DNA of 64,000 bases from Escherichia coli (lineage in GTDB: Bacteria > Pseudomonadota > Gammaproteobacteria > Enterobacterales > Enterobacteriaceae), in the NCBI RefSeq assembly GCF_044324875.1, contig NZ_CP172187.1; one strand, given 5' to 3'. Below are positions 1 through 57,773 of this stretch, in pieces. A program made the translations under genes and the position numbers. The notes below the pieces were generated by a model. It was not told the DNA's origin and did not search any database. It was given only the letters and a program-made list of their open reading frames with translations. Numbering within the stretch: the first letter of the stretch is position 1; each line of letters starts with the position of its first letter.

Positions 1-858
1 GTGACTGATCTTCAACAAACGTATTACCGCCAGGTAAAGAACCCGAATCCGGTATTTACACCCCGTGAAGGTGCCGGAACGCTGAAGTTTTGCGAAAAAC
101 TGATGGAAAAGGCGGTGGGCTTCACCTCCCGTTTTGATTTCGCCATTCATGTGGCACACGCCCGTTCGCGTGGTCTGCGCCGGCGCATGCCGCCGGTACT
201 GCGTCGACGGGCCATTGATGCGCTGCTGCAGGGGCTGTGTTTCCACTATGACCCGCTGGCCAACCGCGTCCAGTGCTCCATCACCACACTGGCCATTGAG
301 TGCGGACTGGCGACGGAGTCTGCTGCCGGAAAACTCTCTATCACCCGTGCCACCCGCGCCCTGACGTTCCTCGCAGAGCTGGGCCTGATTACCTACCAGA
401 CGGAATATGACCCGCTTATCGGGTGCTACATTCCGACCGACATCACGTTCACACCGGCACTGTTTGCCGCTCTCGATGTGTCTGAGGTGGCGGTGGCAGC
501 TGCGCGCCGCAGTCGTGTGGAATGGGAAAACAGACAGCGCAAGAAGCAGGGACTGGATGCACTGGGTATGGATGAACTGATAGCGAAAGCCTGGCGTTTT
601 GTGCGTGAGCGTTTCCGCAGTTACCAGACAGAGCTTAAGTCCCGGGGAATAAAGCGTGCCCGTGCGCGTCGTGATGCGGACAGGGAACGTCAGGATATTG
701 TCACCCTGGTGAAACGGCAGCTGACGCGCGAAATCGCGGAAGGGCGCTTCACTGCTAATCGTGAGGCAGTAAAACGCGAAGTGGAGCGTCGTGTGAAGGA
801 GCGCATGATTCTGTCACGTAACCGTAATTACAGCCGGCTGGCCACAGCTTCCCCCTGA
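1..858 (+). CDS. repA1: IncFII replication initiator RepA1 (complete, GTG start at window position 1)
   Basis: 285 aa ORF recognised as near-identical to the R100/NR1 RepA1 sequence ([29 protein letters not shown]...). Confidence 0.9.
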
Positions 859-999
859 AAGTGACCTCCTCAGAATAATCCGGCCCGCGCCGGAGGCATT
901 CGCACGCCTGAAGCCTGTCAGCGAACAAAAAAGCAGCACTGCATACAAAAAACAATCTCATCATCCCCCTTCAGGTGCATCCGGTTCCCCCTGTTTTTG

Positions 1000-1260
1000 A
1001 TGCAAAACACCTCTCACAGACGGGGAATTTTGCTTGTCCACATTTAACTGCAAGGGACTTCCCCATAAGGTTACAACCGTTCATGCCATAAAGCGCCAGC
1101 CGACAGCCTTACAGGGTGCAATGTATCTTTTAAACACCAGTTTATATCTCCTTTAAACTACCTAATTACATTCATTTAAAAAGAAAACCTGTTCACTGCC
1201 TGTCCTGTGGACAGACAGATAGCACCTCCCACCGCAAGCGGCGGGCCCCCACCGGAGCCA
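1000..1260. other. IncFII vegetative origin oriR region (approximate)
   Basis: Lies just downstream of repA1; DnaA-box-like TTGTCCACA near 1024 and inverted TGTGGACAG near 1208; AT-rich stretch. Confidence 0.4.
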
Positions 1261-1820
1261 TTTTAGTTACAACACTCAAATACAACCACCAGGAAAACCC
1301 CGGTCCAGCGCAGAACCGAAACAACAAAGCCCCTCCCTCATAACTTAAAAGCGGCCCCGCCCCGGCCCGAAGGGCCGGAACAGAGTCGCTTTTAATTATG
1401 AATGTTGTAACTACATCTTCATCGCTGTCAGTCTTCTCGCTGGAAGTTCTCAGTACACGCTCGTAAGCGGCCCTCACGGCCCGCTAACGCGGAGATACGC
1501 CCCGACTTCGGGTAAACCCTCGTCGGGACCACTCCGACCGCGCACAGAAGCTCTATCATGGCTGAAAACGGGTATGGTCTGGCAGGGCTGGGGATAGGTA
1601 AGGTGAAATCTATCAATCAGTACCGGCTTACGCCGGGCTTCGGCGGTTTTACTCCTGTGCCATATGTAGCCACATCATGCCGCCTTCCATGCCGCTGGCG
1701 CGGCATATACCGGCAGTACAGCTATCTGTGTTTGATAGTATTTAAAGCGACGTTTTTTTCTTGAACCTGTGTCACTTATAAGAGACAATATACACAGGTT
1801 AAGGGAATGAGGGCGGCAAG

Positions 1821-2156
1821 ATGCCTTACACGGCGAAACGATATCAGACAGAAAACGGTGAGATCCCATACACCGACTGGATGAAAAAATTAAGACGCAA
1901 AGACCAGGCCGCAGCGTTAAAGGTGGATTCCAGAATTGCCCGCGCTATGAGCGGAAATTTCGGAGATCATAAATTTGAAAGGGACGGTGTCTGGGAATTA
2001 CGGATTGATTACGGTCCTGGTTACAGGGTTTATTATTCAATCGAAGATGGCGAAATAATTCTTCTGCTCATTGGCGGGAATAAAAAAACTCAGACAGCCG
2101 ATTTAGATAAAGCCGTTAGTTATCTGCAAGATTTTAAAAAGAGGTCAAAAAAATGA
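1821..2156 (+). CDS. Type II toxin, RelE/ParE superfamily (HigB-like, toxin-first arrangement)
   Basis: 111 aa; motif VWELRIDYGPGYRVYY...IILLLIGGNK typical of killer proteins; 4-bp overlap with the following HTH gene. Confidence 0.7.
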   Translation: MPYTAKRYQTENGEIPYTDWMKKLRRKDQAAALKVDSRIARAMSGNFGDHKFERDGVWELRIDYGPGYRVYYSIEDGEIILLLIGGNKKTQTADLDKAVSYLQDFKKRSKK

Positions 2157-2503
2157 CAGCCACCAAAAATGTGAAGGCGCAGAAAAATGGTTATCCGGCA
2201 TCCGTTGATCACAATGCCGCCATGATTGAAGAATTGCGCGCAGATCCTGATTATGCAAACGCTTATCTTGCTAATGCCCTGGAAGAAATAAACGAGCCTG
2301 GTGGTTTAGGCGGTTTTCTTGTTGCGCTACGTCAGGTCATCGAGGCGCGAGGGGGGATTTCCGAAGCTGCCAGGAAATCTGGCCTTGCCCGTCAGAGTAT
2401 TTACCGCGCATTATCCCCGAACGGGAATCCGACCATCACAACACTTGCACAACTTACATCAGTAGCCGGATTACAGTTCACTCTCAGTAAATCCAGCCAC
2501 TAA
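2153..2503 (+). CDS. HigA-family HTH antitoxin (addiction module antidote)
   Basis: 116 aa with C-terminal helix-turn-helix (EAARKSGLARQSIYRAL); translationally coupled to the upstream toxin. Confidence 0.7.
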   Translation: MTATKNVKAQKNGYPASVDHNAAMIEELRADPDYANAYLANALEEINEPGGLGGFLVALRQVIEARGGISEAARKSGLARQSIYRALSPNGNPTITTLAQLTSVAGLQFTLSKSSH

Positions 2504-3221
2504 TCTCTCCGGTTCCCCCTGAGCGGGGGAATTTCACTGGCACTTATTGCGGGGAACAAAACCATCGGACGGGGGAAACATCTGTATTTCTGTGTGTCCT
2601 GGTGTAATACGGTGGATTTGTGTGTGTCTGGAAGCTTAATGCTAATGTATGCGTACATTAGCATTAAGCCTGTTTTCCCGTCGTGTCGGGGTCAGTCTGG
2701 GAAACGTACAATATTGTGTGTTTCTTGCTGTAGGGGAACGAGGTAACGTTTACACACTCGCGAGTGAGCGGATGAAATAATATCTCATTCAGTACTCTTT
2801 TTATCTGCTGCCGTTTTTTCCGGTGATTTTTTTTCTGCATACAGAAAAAAAGCCTGCCCGGAGGGCAGGCATGAAAGACAATCGCACAGTCAGTGTTGAA
2901 ATTAATGATGTCACGCATTTTCCCGGCGGATACACAAACCATCCCGGCCAGTACCGGCGGCATCGTAATCAACGTCTGCGGGCTGTGCAATGCTCTTTTT
3001 GCTGATTTAAGATAAAGTTATTACAGCCCCTGACGGAGACGAAAACAACGGCAGACAATATACGGGAAATATAATCAGACCGTTTTAATATTATTTCCAG
3101 GAACGCGACGAAGTCAGGCAGATTTATATATTTCTGGCCGGGCTGACATTCCGGATTGGTGTATATAATAATACGTTTGTGATATATTTATAATCGGTTT
3201 TATTATGTTGCCGGGGTATTT

Positions 3222-3643
3222 ATGGCCAGGAATCAGGAAAAGAAAACGCCCGTCATTGTGGTGAAAAAACGTCGCGTTATTTCACCTCCTGTCGTCGATA
3301 AAACAGAGACTGTCATTCCGCCTGTACCGGAAGTGGCGGTACCACCGGCAGCTGCTGATGCGCAGCTGCCAGCCCCCATCCCGGATGCGTCTCCTGCGCC
3401 TGCTGCCGTCGGAAAGAAAAGGAAAGGAAGACCACCACGCAGGCCCCTCAGAGAGCACTGGACACGGGAGTTCACCGACCAGTGCATGGAAAAGGTCAAG
3501 GCAATTTTCCCGCATCTTCGCGCTGAAGGCGGCGGTTTTCTGCCTCTCAGGGTCGGTATCTCCCGCGATATTACTGCCTGGCTGGCTGAGCACCCTGAAG
3601 CCGGACTCACCCGGGATGAATGGGACTGTGCCGTATCCTGTAT
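3222..3643 (+). pseudogene. ProQ/FinO-family RNA-chaperone gene, 5-prime part, interrupted by the Tn1721 left IR
   Basis: ORF runs into the IR at 3644; resumes in frame at 30015 with a FinO-like C-terminus. Confidence 0.6.
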
Positions 3644-3681
3644 GGGGGAACCGCAGAATTCGGAAAAAATCGTACGCTAAG
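3644..3681. repeat. Tn1721 terminal inverted repeat (left)
   Basis: GGGGGAACCGCAGAATTCGGAAAAAATCGTACGCTAAG. Confidence 0.8.
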
Positions 3682-3832
3682 CTAACGGTGTTCTCGTGAC
3701 AGCTCTTTGACTAGGCTTTCTAAGGCCATTCTGATAGCCCTGACTTCCTGAAAAGCCATGGCTAAAATTTGTGCGGCTAAAAGGGATAACCGATGGTAAA
3801 GTAAGTTATCCCTGTCGAGATACTGAAAAGCG

Positions 3833-5150
3833 TTATCCTCGTTTTTCCCAAAACTGTTTTGCCAGTTCGCTCAGAGCGCTAGTTAACTGAGCGACAGATT
3901 TCGCACTTTGCAAATTATTCTGCCCGGTCTGTACATTGGTATCAGCAGCATCGCGTATATTGATAATACTGCGGTTTATGTCTTCACTTACTGCTCCCTG
4001 CTGCTCGACCGCAGTCGCTATTTGCGCGTTCATGTCGGTAATTTCGTTAACGCGTTGGCCAATTCCATCAAGAGCTGTAGCTGCTTCCTCTGCGTGAGCT
4101 ACACTCGTGTGCGCTTGCCGACTACTTTGCTCCATGACTGTAACAGCGGATTGCGCTCGCTCTTGTAGAGCGCTGATCATGCTTTGAATATCCGTTGTCG
4201 ATTGCTGTGTGCGAGCAGCAAGACTGCGAACCTCATCGGCGACAACAGCAAAACCACGCCCCTGCTCACCAGCACGCGCGGCCTCAATTGCTGCGTTGAG
4301 TGCCAACAAATTCGTTTGCTCGGCGATCCCTCGTATAACGTCAAGAACTTTTGATATCTCGTTACTTTGACCTTCAAGCTCATGAATAACCTGAGTGGCT
4401 TGCCTAATTTCACCTTCAAGGGCAGTGATTGACTGGCTTGTGTGGGCTACCAGACGCTGGCCAGATGCCGTCTCAGTGTCTGCTCTTCCGGCCGCATCTG
4501 CAGCATGCTGTGCATTGCTCGCAACCTCTTGAATGCTTGCCACCATTTGGTTTACTGCCGTTGCTATTTGATCTGTCTCTGCCTGCTGCTCAACTGTAAG
4601 TACATTGCTTGACTCAATATCCTTTAGTAGGCCTCGGGTGTGTTCGCTAAGCCGATTTGATGCATCACCTATGCGACCTACTATGGCGCCTGTTTCAGCT
4701 TGCATCATTCGTAAAGCAAACTCTATTTGGCCAAACTCATCGGTGCGCCCAGTGTAGAGGGATTGACTTAATGGGTTATTGGAAATATTCCTGGCTCTTT
4801 CAACCAGTCTTCCAAGAGGAGAGAGAATAGCCAAAACACTAACAGAGCTTAAGCTTCCTGACATTAAAGTGGCTAACAATAAGCTGCTTATTGATGTATC
4901 AGTAAGCATGCCGGCAGCCATTGCGCTTGATATAATACTACCCCATATGAGCAAGAGTATTTTCACGGAAAAGCTAGCAGCCAATTTCGGCCTCGCGGCC
5001 TTCCCGCTTCTCAATTGAGCATATAATTTTTCCGCAGCCAAAACCTGCTCAGGTTCAGGCTTGGTCCTTACAGACTGGTATTCAACAATCGAACCATTCT
5101 TAGCTATTGGCGTTACATAAGCACTTACCCAATAGTGGTCGCCATTTTTA
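3833..5150 (-). pseudogene. mcp: Methyl-accepting chemotaxis protein gene of Tn1721 (mcp/orfI), 5-prime end truncated by IS1
   Basis: PAS-like region followed by MCP signalling domain ([31 protein letters not shown]); ORF abuts the IS1 end at 5151. Confidence 0.7.
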
Positions 5151-5165
5151 GGTAATGACTCCAAC

Positions 5166-5669
5166 TTATTGATAGTGTTTTATGTTCAGATAATGCCCGA
5201 TGACTTTGTCATGCAGCTCCACCGATTTTGAGAACGACAGCGACTTCCGTCCCAGCCGTGCCAGGTGCTGCCTCAGATTCAGGTTATGCCGCTCAATTCG
5301 CTGCGTATATCGCTTGCTGATTACGTGCAGCTTTCCCTTCAGGCGGGATTCATACAGCGGCCAGCCATCCGTCATCCATATCACCACGTCAAAGGGTGAC
5401 AGCAGGCTCATAAGACGCCCCAGCGTCGCCATAGTGCGTTCACCGAATACGTGCGCAACAACCGTCTTCCGGAGCCTGTCATACGCGTAAAACAGCCAGC
5501 GCTGGCGCGATTTAGCCCCGACATAGCCCCACTGTTCGTCCATTTCCGCGCAGACGATGACGTCACTGCCCGGCTGTATGCGCGAGGTTACCGACTGCGG
5601 CCTGAGTTTTTTAAGTGACGTAAAATCGTGTTGAGGCCAACGCCCATAATGCGGGCAGTTGCCCGGCAT
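5166..5669 (-). CDS. insB: IS1 InsB (transposase is made as InsAB by frameshifting)
   Basis: 167 aa ORF recognised as IS1 InsB. Confidence 0.9.
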
Positions 5670-5863
5670 CCAACGCCATTCATGGCCATATCAATGATTT
5701 TCTGGTGCGTACCGGGTTGAGAAGCGGTGTAAGTGAACTGCAGTTGCCATGTTTTACGGCAGTGAGAGCAGAGATAGCGCTGATGTCCGGCGGTGCTTTT
5801 GCCGTTACGCACCACCCCGTCAGTAGCTGAACAGGAGGGACAGCTGATAGAAACAGAAGCCAC
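5588..5863 (-). CDS. insA: IS1 InsA
   Basis: 91 aa, [42 protein letters not shown]... Confidence 0.9.
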
Positions 5864-6054
5864 TGGAGCACCTCAAAAACACCATCATACACTAAATCAG
5901 TAAGTTGGCAGCATCACCTAGGATTACAGGGGCATTCAGTTGAAAGGCGGCCCAGCCACTGGCATCACATACAGCGGATGTCACATTTGAACCGTCAATA
6001 CAAGCAATCACATTTGTCATCGTTTTATTCCTTTGTTGTTGTGTTGCTAATGGC

Positions 6055-36405: not shown

Positions 36406-36529
36406 TATAGCCTCATATTAAGTTGTTAAGTTAACAACTTAATATTGCCATCTGAACGCGAATCATGCAATTATTTTTGTTATATTAACAACTTAACAAG
36501 TTATTAAGTATTTGATTTATAGATTAATT

Positions 36530-56655: not shown

Positions 56656-57477
56656 ATGCGATTAGCTTCCCGTTTTGGTCGGTATAATTCCATCCGTCGT
56701 GAACGTCCTTTAACGGATGATGAATTAATGCAGTTCGTGCCTTCGGTATTTTCCGGTGATAAACATGAGTCCCGGAGTGAACGTTATACGTATATTCCAA
56801 CAATCAATATCATCAATAAGTTACGTGATGAAGGTTTCCAGCCATTCTTTGCCTGTCAGAGTCGGGTTCGTGATTTGGGACGCCGCGAATACAGTAAACA
56901 TATGTTACGTCTTCGCAGGGAAGGGCATATTAACGGGCAGGAAGTTCCTGAAATTATCCTGCTTAATTCACATGATGGTTCATCCAGTTATCAGATGATC
57001 CCCGGAATTTTTCGTTTTGTCTGCACAAATGGCCTGGTGTGCGGAAATAATTTTGGCGAAATCCGTGTTCCACATAAAGGTGATATTGTCGGGCAGGTTA
57101 TCGAGGGAGCGTATGAAGTGCTCGGTGTCTTTGATAAGGTCACTGATAATATGGAGGCGATGAAAGAAATTCATCTTAACAGTGACGAGCAACATTTATT
57201 TGGCAGAGCTGCACTGATGGTCAGGTATGAAGATGAAAATAAAACGCCAGTGACACCTGAACAGATAATTACTCCCCGTCGTCGGGAAGATAAACAGAAC
57301 GATCTCTGGACAACCTGGCAGCGGGTTCAGGAGAATATGATAAAAGGTGGATTATCGGGGCGAAGTGCCTCCGGGAAAAATACCAGGACAAGAGCCATTA
57401 CAGGTATTGATGGTGATATAAGAATCAACAAGGCGTTATGGGTGATTGCCGAACAGTTCAGAAAGTGGAAGTCATGA
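56656..57477 (+). CDS. Leading-region protein (F orf273-like, DUF932-type)
   Basis: 273 aa from MRLASRFGRYNSIRRERPLTDDELMQF... Confidence 0.55.
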   Translation: MRLASRFGRYNSIRRERPLTDDELMQFVPSVFSGDKHESRSERYTYIPTINIINKLRDEGFQPFFACQSRVRDLGRREYSKHMLRLRREGHINGQEVPEIILLNSHDGSSSYQMIPGIFRFVCTNGLVCGNNFGEIRVPHKGDIVGQVIEGAYEVLGVFDKVTDNMEAMKEIHLNSDEQHLFGRAALMVRYEDENKTPVTPEQIITPRRREDKQNDLWTTWQRVQENMIKGGLSGRSASGKNTRTRAITGIDGDIRINKALWVIAEQFRKWKS

Positions 57478-57488
57478 TAATATAAGTA

Positions 57489-57520
57489 AAGCCCCGAAAA
57501 AATTTTCGGGGCTTTACTTA
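57489..57520 (+). terminator. Rho-independent terminator after the orf273-like gene
   Basis: GCCCCGAAAAAATTTTCGGGGC hairpin followed by T-rich tract. Confidence 0.5.
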
Positions 57521-57773
57521 TATTATCATTTTTCGGCATTGCTGTGTCGTCTGATATACCTCAATTTCATCGACCGGCTTTCCGGTTGTCTGTAAATATT
57601 GTGCCCGCGAAAAATGGTCTGGCAGGAGGCTGCGCAGTTACCGGGTATATATAAGATGGGTTCCCGCTTCGCGGGGCTTCGGCCAGTCAGTATTGTCACT
57701 CATATGATATTTTTGTGTGTGGCCTTCCATGCCGCTTTTGCGGCATAACCGGTATCTGACAATGTCTGTAAGA

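Follow-up and report, generated by a model that had tools for sequence, protein, structure and literature searches.

A yadA/PSLT047-type palindrome and a minus-strand terminator in a probable mosaic junction downstream of IncFII repA

We analysed a stretch of 64,000 nucleotides of Escherichia coli contig NZ_CP172187.1 (assembly GCF_044324875.1), hereafter the window, and in particular its 718-bp gap at positions 2504-3221, which lies between a type II toxin-antitoxin (TA) operon and a truncated gene of the ProQ/FinO family, downstream of the IncFII replication gene repA. This gap is probably a mosaic junction that holds two orphan transcript-end signals, and not a single control region. One of these is a perfect palindrome that, judged by its sequence, is of the type found around the plasmid gene yadA (PSLT047 on plasmid pSLT), and that by its context is an orphan, having neither that gene nor a -35 sequence beside it. 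The other is a likely minus-strand intrinsic terminator. For the window itself this means little: the gap would be a recombination scar, and no hidden IncFII control element. The wider significance lies in a conserved palindrome-gene-palindrome architecture around yadA/PSLT047, a gene carried by about 3600 enterobacterial plasmids sequenced so far, among them R100-type resistance plasmids, pSLT and Klebsiella virulence plasmids. One palindrome copy is linked to the yadA promoter, and the second to the point at which IesR-1, the only regulator of this gene that has been studied, has its 3' end. This offers a testable handle on a widespread, uncharacterised plasmid gene. In addition, the unit of about 105 bp to which the terminator belongs is present on plasmids and on chromosomes, including those of E. 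coli B strains, and could be a new small RNA (sRNA).

The features on which the argument rests are the following; comparison sequences are designated by L numbers.

2634-2669: perfect palindrome GCTTAATGCTAATGTA-TGCG-TACATTAGCATTAAGC with 16-bp arms and a 4-nt centre (direct reading and scan)
2636-2667: 32-bp core of the palindrome, TTAATGCTAATGTA-TGCG-TACATTAGCATTAA
2728-2781, plus strand: 3' remnant of a gene for a relBE(P307)-like RelE, ending ..AVGERGNVYTLASERMK* (translation compared with the toxins of L007 and L002)
2809-2834, plus strand: weak terminator-like hairpin TGCCG..CGGTG followed by T8 (scan; conserved after intact relE in L007 and L002)
2845-2870, minus strand: putative intrinsic terminator with stem GCCTGCCC/GGGCAGGC and loop TCC, followed by T7 (scan and folds)
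2871-2952, minus strand: conserved body of the minus-strand unit, with a near-invariant block at 2871-2916 (alignments)

A toxin-antitoxin swap next to the IncFII replicon

The evidence for a junction comes from the comparison with an IncFII plasmid (L007), in which the gene order is RepA, Phd-type antitoxin, RelE toxin and ProQ/FinO gene. The window and L007 are homologous only over window positions 1-1706 and 2736-3643. The intervening positions 1707-2735, which include the HigB-like TA operon and the palindrome, have no counterpart in L007 and stand in the place of its relBE-like TA operon. The remnant at 2728-2781 corresponds to the last ~17 codons of relE (the C-terminus of the L007 RelE reads ..AVGKRERSNVYHLASERMK*), and its translation identifies it as the mark of the right-hand swap junction. 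The same slot is filled by a third type of TA operon (DUF1778/GNAT) in L015, and the TA operon of the window recurs together with a tail of about 230 bp, including the palindrome, on plasmid pZ1834-2 (L009), at 82% identity. According to our proposal, a HigB/Gp49-HI1420 TA module with its ~230-bp tail (1707 to ~2727) would have replaced a relBE-like TA operon downstream of the IncFII origin, leaving the last ~50 nt of relE and all sequence to the right of it in place. Because the palindrome came with the incoming module and the GC-rich hairpin from the old backbone, the two elements would be unrelated. The initial annotation had treated them as features of one gap element, which does not agree with their belonging to different modules joined by the TA swap. 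The left edge of the swap (1706) coincides with another palindrome, ATGCCGC-TGGC-GCGGCAT (1689-1706).

The resulting arrangement is not confined to the window: at least 80% of positions 2480-3260 is present in one place in 13 PLSDB plasmids, most of them with at least 99% identity, and NZ_OQ423473.1 carries an identical region at the same coordinates. The gap had also been described as having no credible open reading frame (ORF), and we agree, since the listed ORFs are not conserved (frame-shifting indels, ATG replaced by ATA); it does hold the relE pseudogene fragment.

The palindrome and the yadA/PSLT047 loci

The inverted repeat was found exactly where the initial annotation had placed it, and it exceeds chance. 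Direct calculation gives an expectation of ~1e-4 per 64 kb for perfect hairpins whose arms have 16 bp and whose loop does not exceed 8 nt; a pattern search returned one match in the window and none in 100 shuffles; and the corresponding RNA folds with -24.4 kcal/mol (z = -5.2), a value equalled by 0 of 200 shuffles. The listing of a repeat finder omitted the palindrome, for whatever cause, but direct reading, scan, pattern search and fold all show it. It begins 130 bp past the antitoxin stop codon.

When positions 2504-2800 were compared with PLSDB, 1369 records were obtained, and in most of them only the 32-bp core (2636-2667) matched, with 100% identity and in unrelated flanks. The records bearing the core are plasmids of E. 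coli, Salmonella and Klebsiella, and more than 1000 are identical to it; the copies on pSLT, R100-type and Klebsiella plasmids are among the identical ones. In complete E. coli genomes, 498 of the 502 places with the core are on plasmids. The palindrome also occurs far from any IncFII replicon, namely on pSLT next to tlpA, on IncHI1 plasmids, on Klebsiella IncFIB/HI1B plasmids, and in Photorhabdus and Dickeya.

The palindromes occur as a pair that brackets a gene of ~160 aa; the first copy precedes the start codon by 12-21 nt, and the second follows the stop codon at a distance of 5-34 nt. The name of this gene, yadA, comes from R100-style annotation; the pSLT member is PSLT047. Bracketing by two copies is found on pSLT (L004), an R100-type plasmid (L021), Klebsiella plasmids (L017, L018) and an IncHI1 plasmid (L016, with degenerate copies), and in Photorhabdus (L022), while Dickeya (L023) and a metagenomic contig (L025) have the upstream copy only. 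Insertions cut one palindrome copy each in L005 and L006. By tblastn, yadA is present in 3588 PLSDB plasmids, and the family extends to Photorhabdus, Xenorhabdus, Dickeya, Serratia and Edwardsiella. PLSDB contains 889 records with 80% or more of the R100-type cassette of palindrome, yadA and palindrome. YadA has no family match in Pfam, NCBIfam, PHROGs or PADLOC. Its AlphaFold model (pLDDT 88.9) is all-helical with a long C-terminal helix, and a structural search with this model gave no informative neighbour.

The position of the upstream copy suggests that it is part of the yadA promoter. In all nine loci, a TTGnnn sequence is located 16-18 bp before the TAATGT of the palindrome arm, and the start codon follows 30-34 nt after it, although the flanks of these nine copies are otherwise dissimilar. 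By contrast, TTGnnn at this spacing is present in none of eight solitary or downstream copies in either direction. The window copy is one of these eight, with GTGTGT in the forward and CGACGG in the reverse direction at the -35 position. From this comparative geometry we infer that the -10 (TAATGT) and the start site of yadA transcription are covered by the upstream copy.

A link of the downstream copy with an RNA 3' end comes from pSLT, where the sequence 8 nt past the PSLT047 stop codon is the same as the 32-bp core of the window. It has been reported that the PSLT047 mRNA and a convergent antisense RNA of 597 nt, IesR-1, have overlapping 3' ends, that the 3' part of IesR-1 reduces the amount of PSLT047 protein, and that orthologues of PSLT047 are limited to some Salmonella serovars (Gonzalo-Asensio et al. 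2013, PMC3815029). The same paper makes no reference to the palindrome, to the second copy on the PSLT047 promoter or to the wide spread of the gene; by sequence, PSLT047, in the region 2960-3535 of L004, is the pSLT member of the YadA family, whose distribution is far wider than some Salmonella serovars. We placed the +1 of IesR-1 at position 4096 of L004 by means of the primer PLtetO-0995-FW, and with this placement the 'short' construct has a length of 208 nt, as published (PMC3815029). The 597-nt IesR-1 then ends at L004 3500, which is the base of the downstream palindrome (3498-3535), and the primer of the published 'long' construct begins at the edge of the palindrome. The coincidence of the IesR-1 3' end with the palindrome base indicates that the downstream copy would be the 3'-terminal stem-loop of IesR-1. 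Thus, in its native yadA setting, the upstream copy would supply the -10 and start site, and the downstream copy would form the 3' stem-loop of the convergent antisense RNA.

These two roles could be parts of one regulatory circuit in which the antisense RNA pairs, through its 3' end, with the 5' ribosome-binding region of the mRNA, an idea we regard as improbable. Transcription of yadA would then begin within the upstream copy, which would place the arm UACAUUAGCAUUAA in the mRNA leader, 12-13 nt ahead of the start codon, and IesR-1 would end in the full downstream hairpin, which contains the complementary arm. If true, the circuit would account for the published translational, 3'-end-dependent repression of PSLT047, and orphan copies such as that of the window would act as decoys or insulators.

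The window shares with the PSLT047/IesR-1 locus the core of the palindrome, but it has no PSLT047/yadA and no IesR-1 sequence beyond the palindrome. Tblastn found no yadA homologue in the window, and no second copy of the palindrome is present there; the same is true of the 62 kb that make up the rest of NZ_OQ423473.1. On plasmid pEA35_1 (L010), a window-like left flank and palindrome abut a 3' remnant of yadA, which suggests that the tail of the TA module once adjoined a yadA cassette. With no yadA and no -35 beside the window copy, its possible role is reduced to that of a stable hairpin on transcripts that cross it. We therefore consider it a candidate 3'-end-forming or insulating stem-loop behind the TA operon, or else a relic; like any other activity discussed here for the window, this is proposed from sequence comparison.

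Several observations weigh against a 3'-end hairpin. The tail of the palindrome is weakly U-rich in the window (CUGUUUUCCC; on the plus strand, CTGTTTTCCC meets the 5-of-8 rule of the terminator scan), but the tails of the other copies are not U-rich. The longest PSLT047 mRNA, of 740 nt, must cross the downstream copy, so that termination there is partial at best. Furthermore, the inner half-sites GCTAATGTA and TACATTAGC are near-invariant while YadA drops to 50-65% identity, which suggests sequence-specific recognition, and this conservation argues for recognition by a protein rather than for a mere structural hairpin.

The palindrome can be compared with several known kinds of element. Compared with intrinsic terminators, its stem is long and AU-rich and its U-tract weak, making it atypical at best. 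Repetitive extragenic palindromic (REP) sequences and bacterial interspersed mosaic elements (BIMEs) act as stabilisers of mRNA 3' ends. The likeness to these is that of a conserved intergenic palindrome after stop codons, whose base is the site of an RNA 3' end in pSLT; the differences are its perfect stem, its confinement to plasmids (the 498 of 502 places mentioned above), its 1-3 copies per replicon, its link to one gene family and the promoter -10 in one copy. Like the operators of type II TA operons, it is a perfect palindrome beside a HigA-like antitoxin gene, but it is situated downstream of that gene and not in the promoter. A role as operator of the adjacent TA operon was rejected, because the palindrome in the TA promoter is unrelated to this one and a GCTAATGTA half-site is absent there. 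In a comparison by eye, and not as a database test, neither the palindrome nor the minus-strand hairpin fitted the Tus/Ter core GTTGTAAC, XerCD dif/cer arms, the LexA box, the Fur box or KorA/KorB operators, and a literature search for the sequences of both elements gave coincidental matches only. Rfam (E-value mode, window 1-6000) had no match in 2504-3221 at E <= 1. With the palindromes of pSLT (L004 2957-2994) and L021 (2515-2552) it gave a sub-threshold mir-155 match, of 29 bits against a gathering score of 56, which we reject as a chance coincidence; the arm UUAAUGCUAAU, which matches the 5' end of miR-155, gives rise to this hit.

The minus-strand terminator and its conserved unit

The second element had been described as a GC-rich hairpin at about 2850-2868, preceded by a T-run on the plus strand, that terminates a minus-strand transcript. 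The hairpin is real and its reading as a minus-strand terminator stands, but its position is 2852-2870, and what directly precedes it on the plus strand is A7 (2845-2851), not a T-run; T8 is found farther upstream, at 2827-2834. As A7 on the plus strand is T7 right after the stem on the minus strand, the assignment to the minus strand is correct all the same. The hairpin GCCTGCCC-GGA-GGGCAGGC consists of 8 pairs, 7 being G-C, around a loop of 3 nt. It is present in the minimum-free-energy and centroid folds, and it is the sole robust helix in single-sequence and alignment folds; the region contains 6 terminator-like sites, compared with 1.2 expected from shuffles. A functional minus-strand intrinsic terminator is thus likely to be encoded here. 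The GC-rich stem, the short loop and the immediate T7 are those of intrinsic terminators in general, and the difference is that no minus-strand gene is left. Rho-independent terminators, including paired ones between convergent genes, are well established. Here too, two terminators on opposite strands stand back to back behind the relE remnant, 2809-2834 on the plus strand, the probable terminator of the former relBE operon, and 2852-2870 on the minus strand. The latter would halt minus-strand transcription coming from the right before it runs antisense into the TA operon.

The terminator is part of a conserved unit of ~105 bp (~2845-2952), which we found in ~240 plasmids and in 206 places on E. 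coli chromosomes. It accompanies the ProQ/FinO gene in the window, L007, L008 and L013, an intact relBE-like TA operon in an IncY and an IncFIB plasmid (L002, L003), and a DUF1778/GNAT TA operon in L015, and it is cut by IS1 in L014. On chromosomes it is located beside a relE remnant in an autotransporter island, also in the B-derived strains C41(DE3), T7 Express and B-ZidR. In all contexts examined, the unit is positioned just 3' of a TA operon or relE remnant, and convergent with it; TA operons of three different types have it as a neighbour. In the chromosome of E. coli C41(DE3) (L019, 3334-3610) and in L020, the relE remnant and the unit are in an island by insertion sequence (IS) remnants and an autotransporter gene. 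Of the alignment columns, 86% are invariant in the near-invariant block, compared with 74% in the relE remnant and 57-75% in the flanks.

Taken with the conserved stretch of ~65 nt on its upstream side, the terminator may delimit a short non-coding RNA, whose start would be near 2910. A -10-like hexamer, GAAAAT (2917-2922), is located ~70 nt upstream of the T-run and reads TATAAT in L002, L019 and L020, and the unit contains the motif GGAT-N9-ATCC at 2928-2944. The sRNA put forward by the initial annotation is therefore a live candidate, and a self-standing sRNA of ~65 nt, from ~2910 to ~2846, is possible on the basis of these features, although we would not call it probable. Against it speak that GAAAAT is a weak -10 with no acceptable -35 near it, where the promoter scan called no promoter; that none of the 29 predicted pairs showed covariation in an alignment fold of 7 closely related sequences; that the variants of the terminator stem are single-sided and favour neither strand; and that L013 has a 28-nt deletion inside the conserved block. 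The 46-nt body paired with the mRNA regions of repA, the TA operon and the ProQ/FinO gene no better than shuffles did (RNAduplex), and a 20-mer from the block, scanned across a genome collection, had only a chance match, in an unrelated metagenome-assembled genome (L012).

The ProQ/FinO gene is a neighbour of the gap. FinO-domain proteins have sRNA partners, as in FinP/FinO and RocR/RocC (PMC9674577, PMC8136791). The likeness to these pairs consists of a short candidate RNA with a terminator hairpin and U-tail, 350 bp from a ProQ/FinO gene, and FinO domains recognise such terminators. On the other hand, the unit is equally conserved where there is no ProQ/FinO gene (L002, L015 and the chromosomal islands), and the gene is truncated in the window. 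The proximity is suggestive only.

Other readings of the gap, and its surroundings

The palindrome could instead be the DNA operator of a dimeric, sequence-specific protein, for which YadA is the obvious candidate, being the product of the only gene that is always linked to it. The two flanking copies would then repress by occluding the -10/+1, perhaps with looping, and the window copy would be inert unless the protein came in trans from a co-resident plasmid. The half-sites GCTAATGTA / TACATTAGC are indeed almost invariant from Salmonella to Photorhabdus and Dickeya despite the divergence of the protein, the upstream copy covers the -10/+1 in 9 of 9 loci, most variants change a single arm instead of making double changes that would preserve pairing, and YadA, all-helical in its confident model, has a long helix at the C-terminus and numerous invariant positions with Arg, Lys, Ser or Gln. 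However, PSLT047 is not basic (pI 6.6), the downstream copy of pSLT coincides with an RNA 3' end, and this plasmid has no yadA. Moreover, both arms have changed together with symmetry kept in L009 (T>A with A>T) and in Dickeya (CTAATGC..GCATTAG), and some copies lengthen their arms by 1-3 copy-specific complementary bases, which together point to selection for pairing. We consider the operator rather unlikely as the explanation of the palindrome, but a protein-bound operator and a hairpin may both hold. For the protein-binding operator suggested by the initial annotation, this means that it finds support in the overlap with the -10/+1 of yadA, but not in the window, where the copy lacks both -35 and yadA and where the TA operon has a different operator-like palindrome. 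In a quite improbable alternative, the palindrome would be a site of recombination or would delimit a mobile yadA cassette, whose excision left the window copy behind. Plasmid homology does break exactly at the palindrome edges, with L010 sharing the left flank and having a yadA remnant on the other side, two copies bracket the gene, and insertions cut copies in L005 and L006. Yet no recombinase is consistently linked to the palindrome, and no pair of filled and empty sites in which both flanks are shared was found, the right flank of the window being found only in window-type and L009-type plasmids; the fixed distance of 12-21 nt to the start codon and the embedded -10 also argue for an expression signal and not for a crossover site.

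With respect to the minus-strand unit, an alternative that we hold to be possible but less than probable is that terminator and block are the relic 3' untranslated region of an ancestral gene convergent on a relBE-like TA operon, and that they move along with the 3' end of relE but now end no transcript in this plasmid. In L015, a minus-strand AraC-type gene ends 117 nt upstream of the block, so that the unit may be the conserved 3' end of such a gene; to the right of the unit, L002, L003 and the chromosomal islands also have minus-strand genes (autotransporter, pseudogenes). The right neighbour in both the window and L007 is the ProQ/FinO gene on the plus strand, so that no minus-strand gene remains, and L013 tolerates its deletion in the block. 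A relic is harder to reconcile with a block that has more invariant columns (86%) than the relE remnant (74%) or the flanks, and with a unit that begins ~30 nt upstream of the -10-like hexamer (TATAAT in three variants), which is the shape of a self-contained small gene. It is very improbable that the gap encodes a small protein or type I toxin, from the plus-strand ORFs 2873-3005 and 2908-3015 or the minus-strand ORF 2664-2990. ORFs of 36-108 aa are present, PGAP annotated one of 68 aa in L001 (the only one of the closely related records), and a plus-strand ORF of 36 aa has a hydrophobic tail in the window. Nevertheless, every other variant has ATA in place of the ATG at 2873, indels of one base shift the frame between variants and leave unrelated C-terminal halves, and the minus-strand ORF runs through the terminator and its T-run of variable length. 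A type I TA system was rejected on similar grounds, as there is no conserved small ORF overlapped by an antisense RNA, the frames being broken and the starts not conserved. Finally, the control of IncFII replication or transfer, which the initial annotation had considered, is suggested by position alone (1.8-2 kb downstream of repA) and is scarcely credible. Both elements are also found where no IncFII replicon is near, on other replicons and on chromosomes (for the terminator unit IncY, IncFIB and chromosomes), Rfam has no CopA or FinP-like match in the gap, and the 46-nt body gave the shuffle-level pairing described above.

The remaining features around the two elements are listed below.

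1-858: IncFII repA, at the start of the window
1821-2156, plus strand: Gp49/HigB-like toxin gene (Pfam PF05973), of the type II TA operon 1821..2503
2153-2503, plus strand: HI1420-type antitoxin gene (Pfam PF21716), of the same operon
2513-2539, plus strand: hairpin TTCCCCC-TGAGC-GGGGGAA (2513-2531) followed by TTTCACTG, 10 nt past the antitoxin stop codon (read from the sequence)
2533-2633: conserved non-coding block (TTCACTGG..GCGGGGAAC..CCATCGGACGGGGGAAACATCTGTATTTCTGTGTG), common to L009, L010 and L011 (alignment, blastn)
2701-2724: imperfect palindrome GAAACGTACAATATTGTGTGTTTC, close to where the swapped-in module ends on the right
3222-3680, plus strand: truncated ProQ/FinO-family gene (Pfam PF04352), adjoining the gap

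The promoter of the TA operon, TTGAAC-17-TATAAG, is spanned by a palindrome of its own, AACCTGTGT-N19-ACACAGGTT (1757-1793), which is probably the operator of the antitoxin. The hairpin 2513-2531 is kept in the 82%-identical L009, with a change in the loop only, and the stretch 2513-2539 is probably the TA operon's own terminator. In a 6.7-kb ColE1-like plasmid (L011, 1102-1175), the block 2533-2633 directly follows the stop codon of a small ProQ/FinO-family gene. The 12-mer AAACGTACAATA, which is part of GAAACGTACAATATTGTGTGTTTC, is also present 13 nt past the downstream yadA palindrome in L021, where it belongs to inverted repeats of ~40 bp (3119-3150, 3400-3439) around ~280 bp that look like a miniature inverted-repeat transposable element, and upstream of the Photorhabdus yadA palindrome (L022 1394).

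The ProQ/FinO-family gene has 152 aa here, compared with 207 aa in the full-length copy of L001, because it is cut by a transposon end. The cut is made by GGGGAACCGCAGAATTCGGAAAAAATCGTACGCTAAG, which we take to be a terminal inverted repeat of the Tn1721 type; beyond it lie an MCP-like ORF (3833-5164, minus strand) and IS1 (3645-5863 in all). The same terminal repeat also cuts the upstream yadA palindrome in L006. Further perfect palindromes in the window are located at 57474-57529 (27-nt arms, 2-nt gap), 35438-35472 (AGATAACAAGATAACA/TGTTATCTTGTTATCT) and 36415-36445 (15-nt arms).

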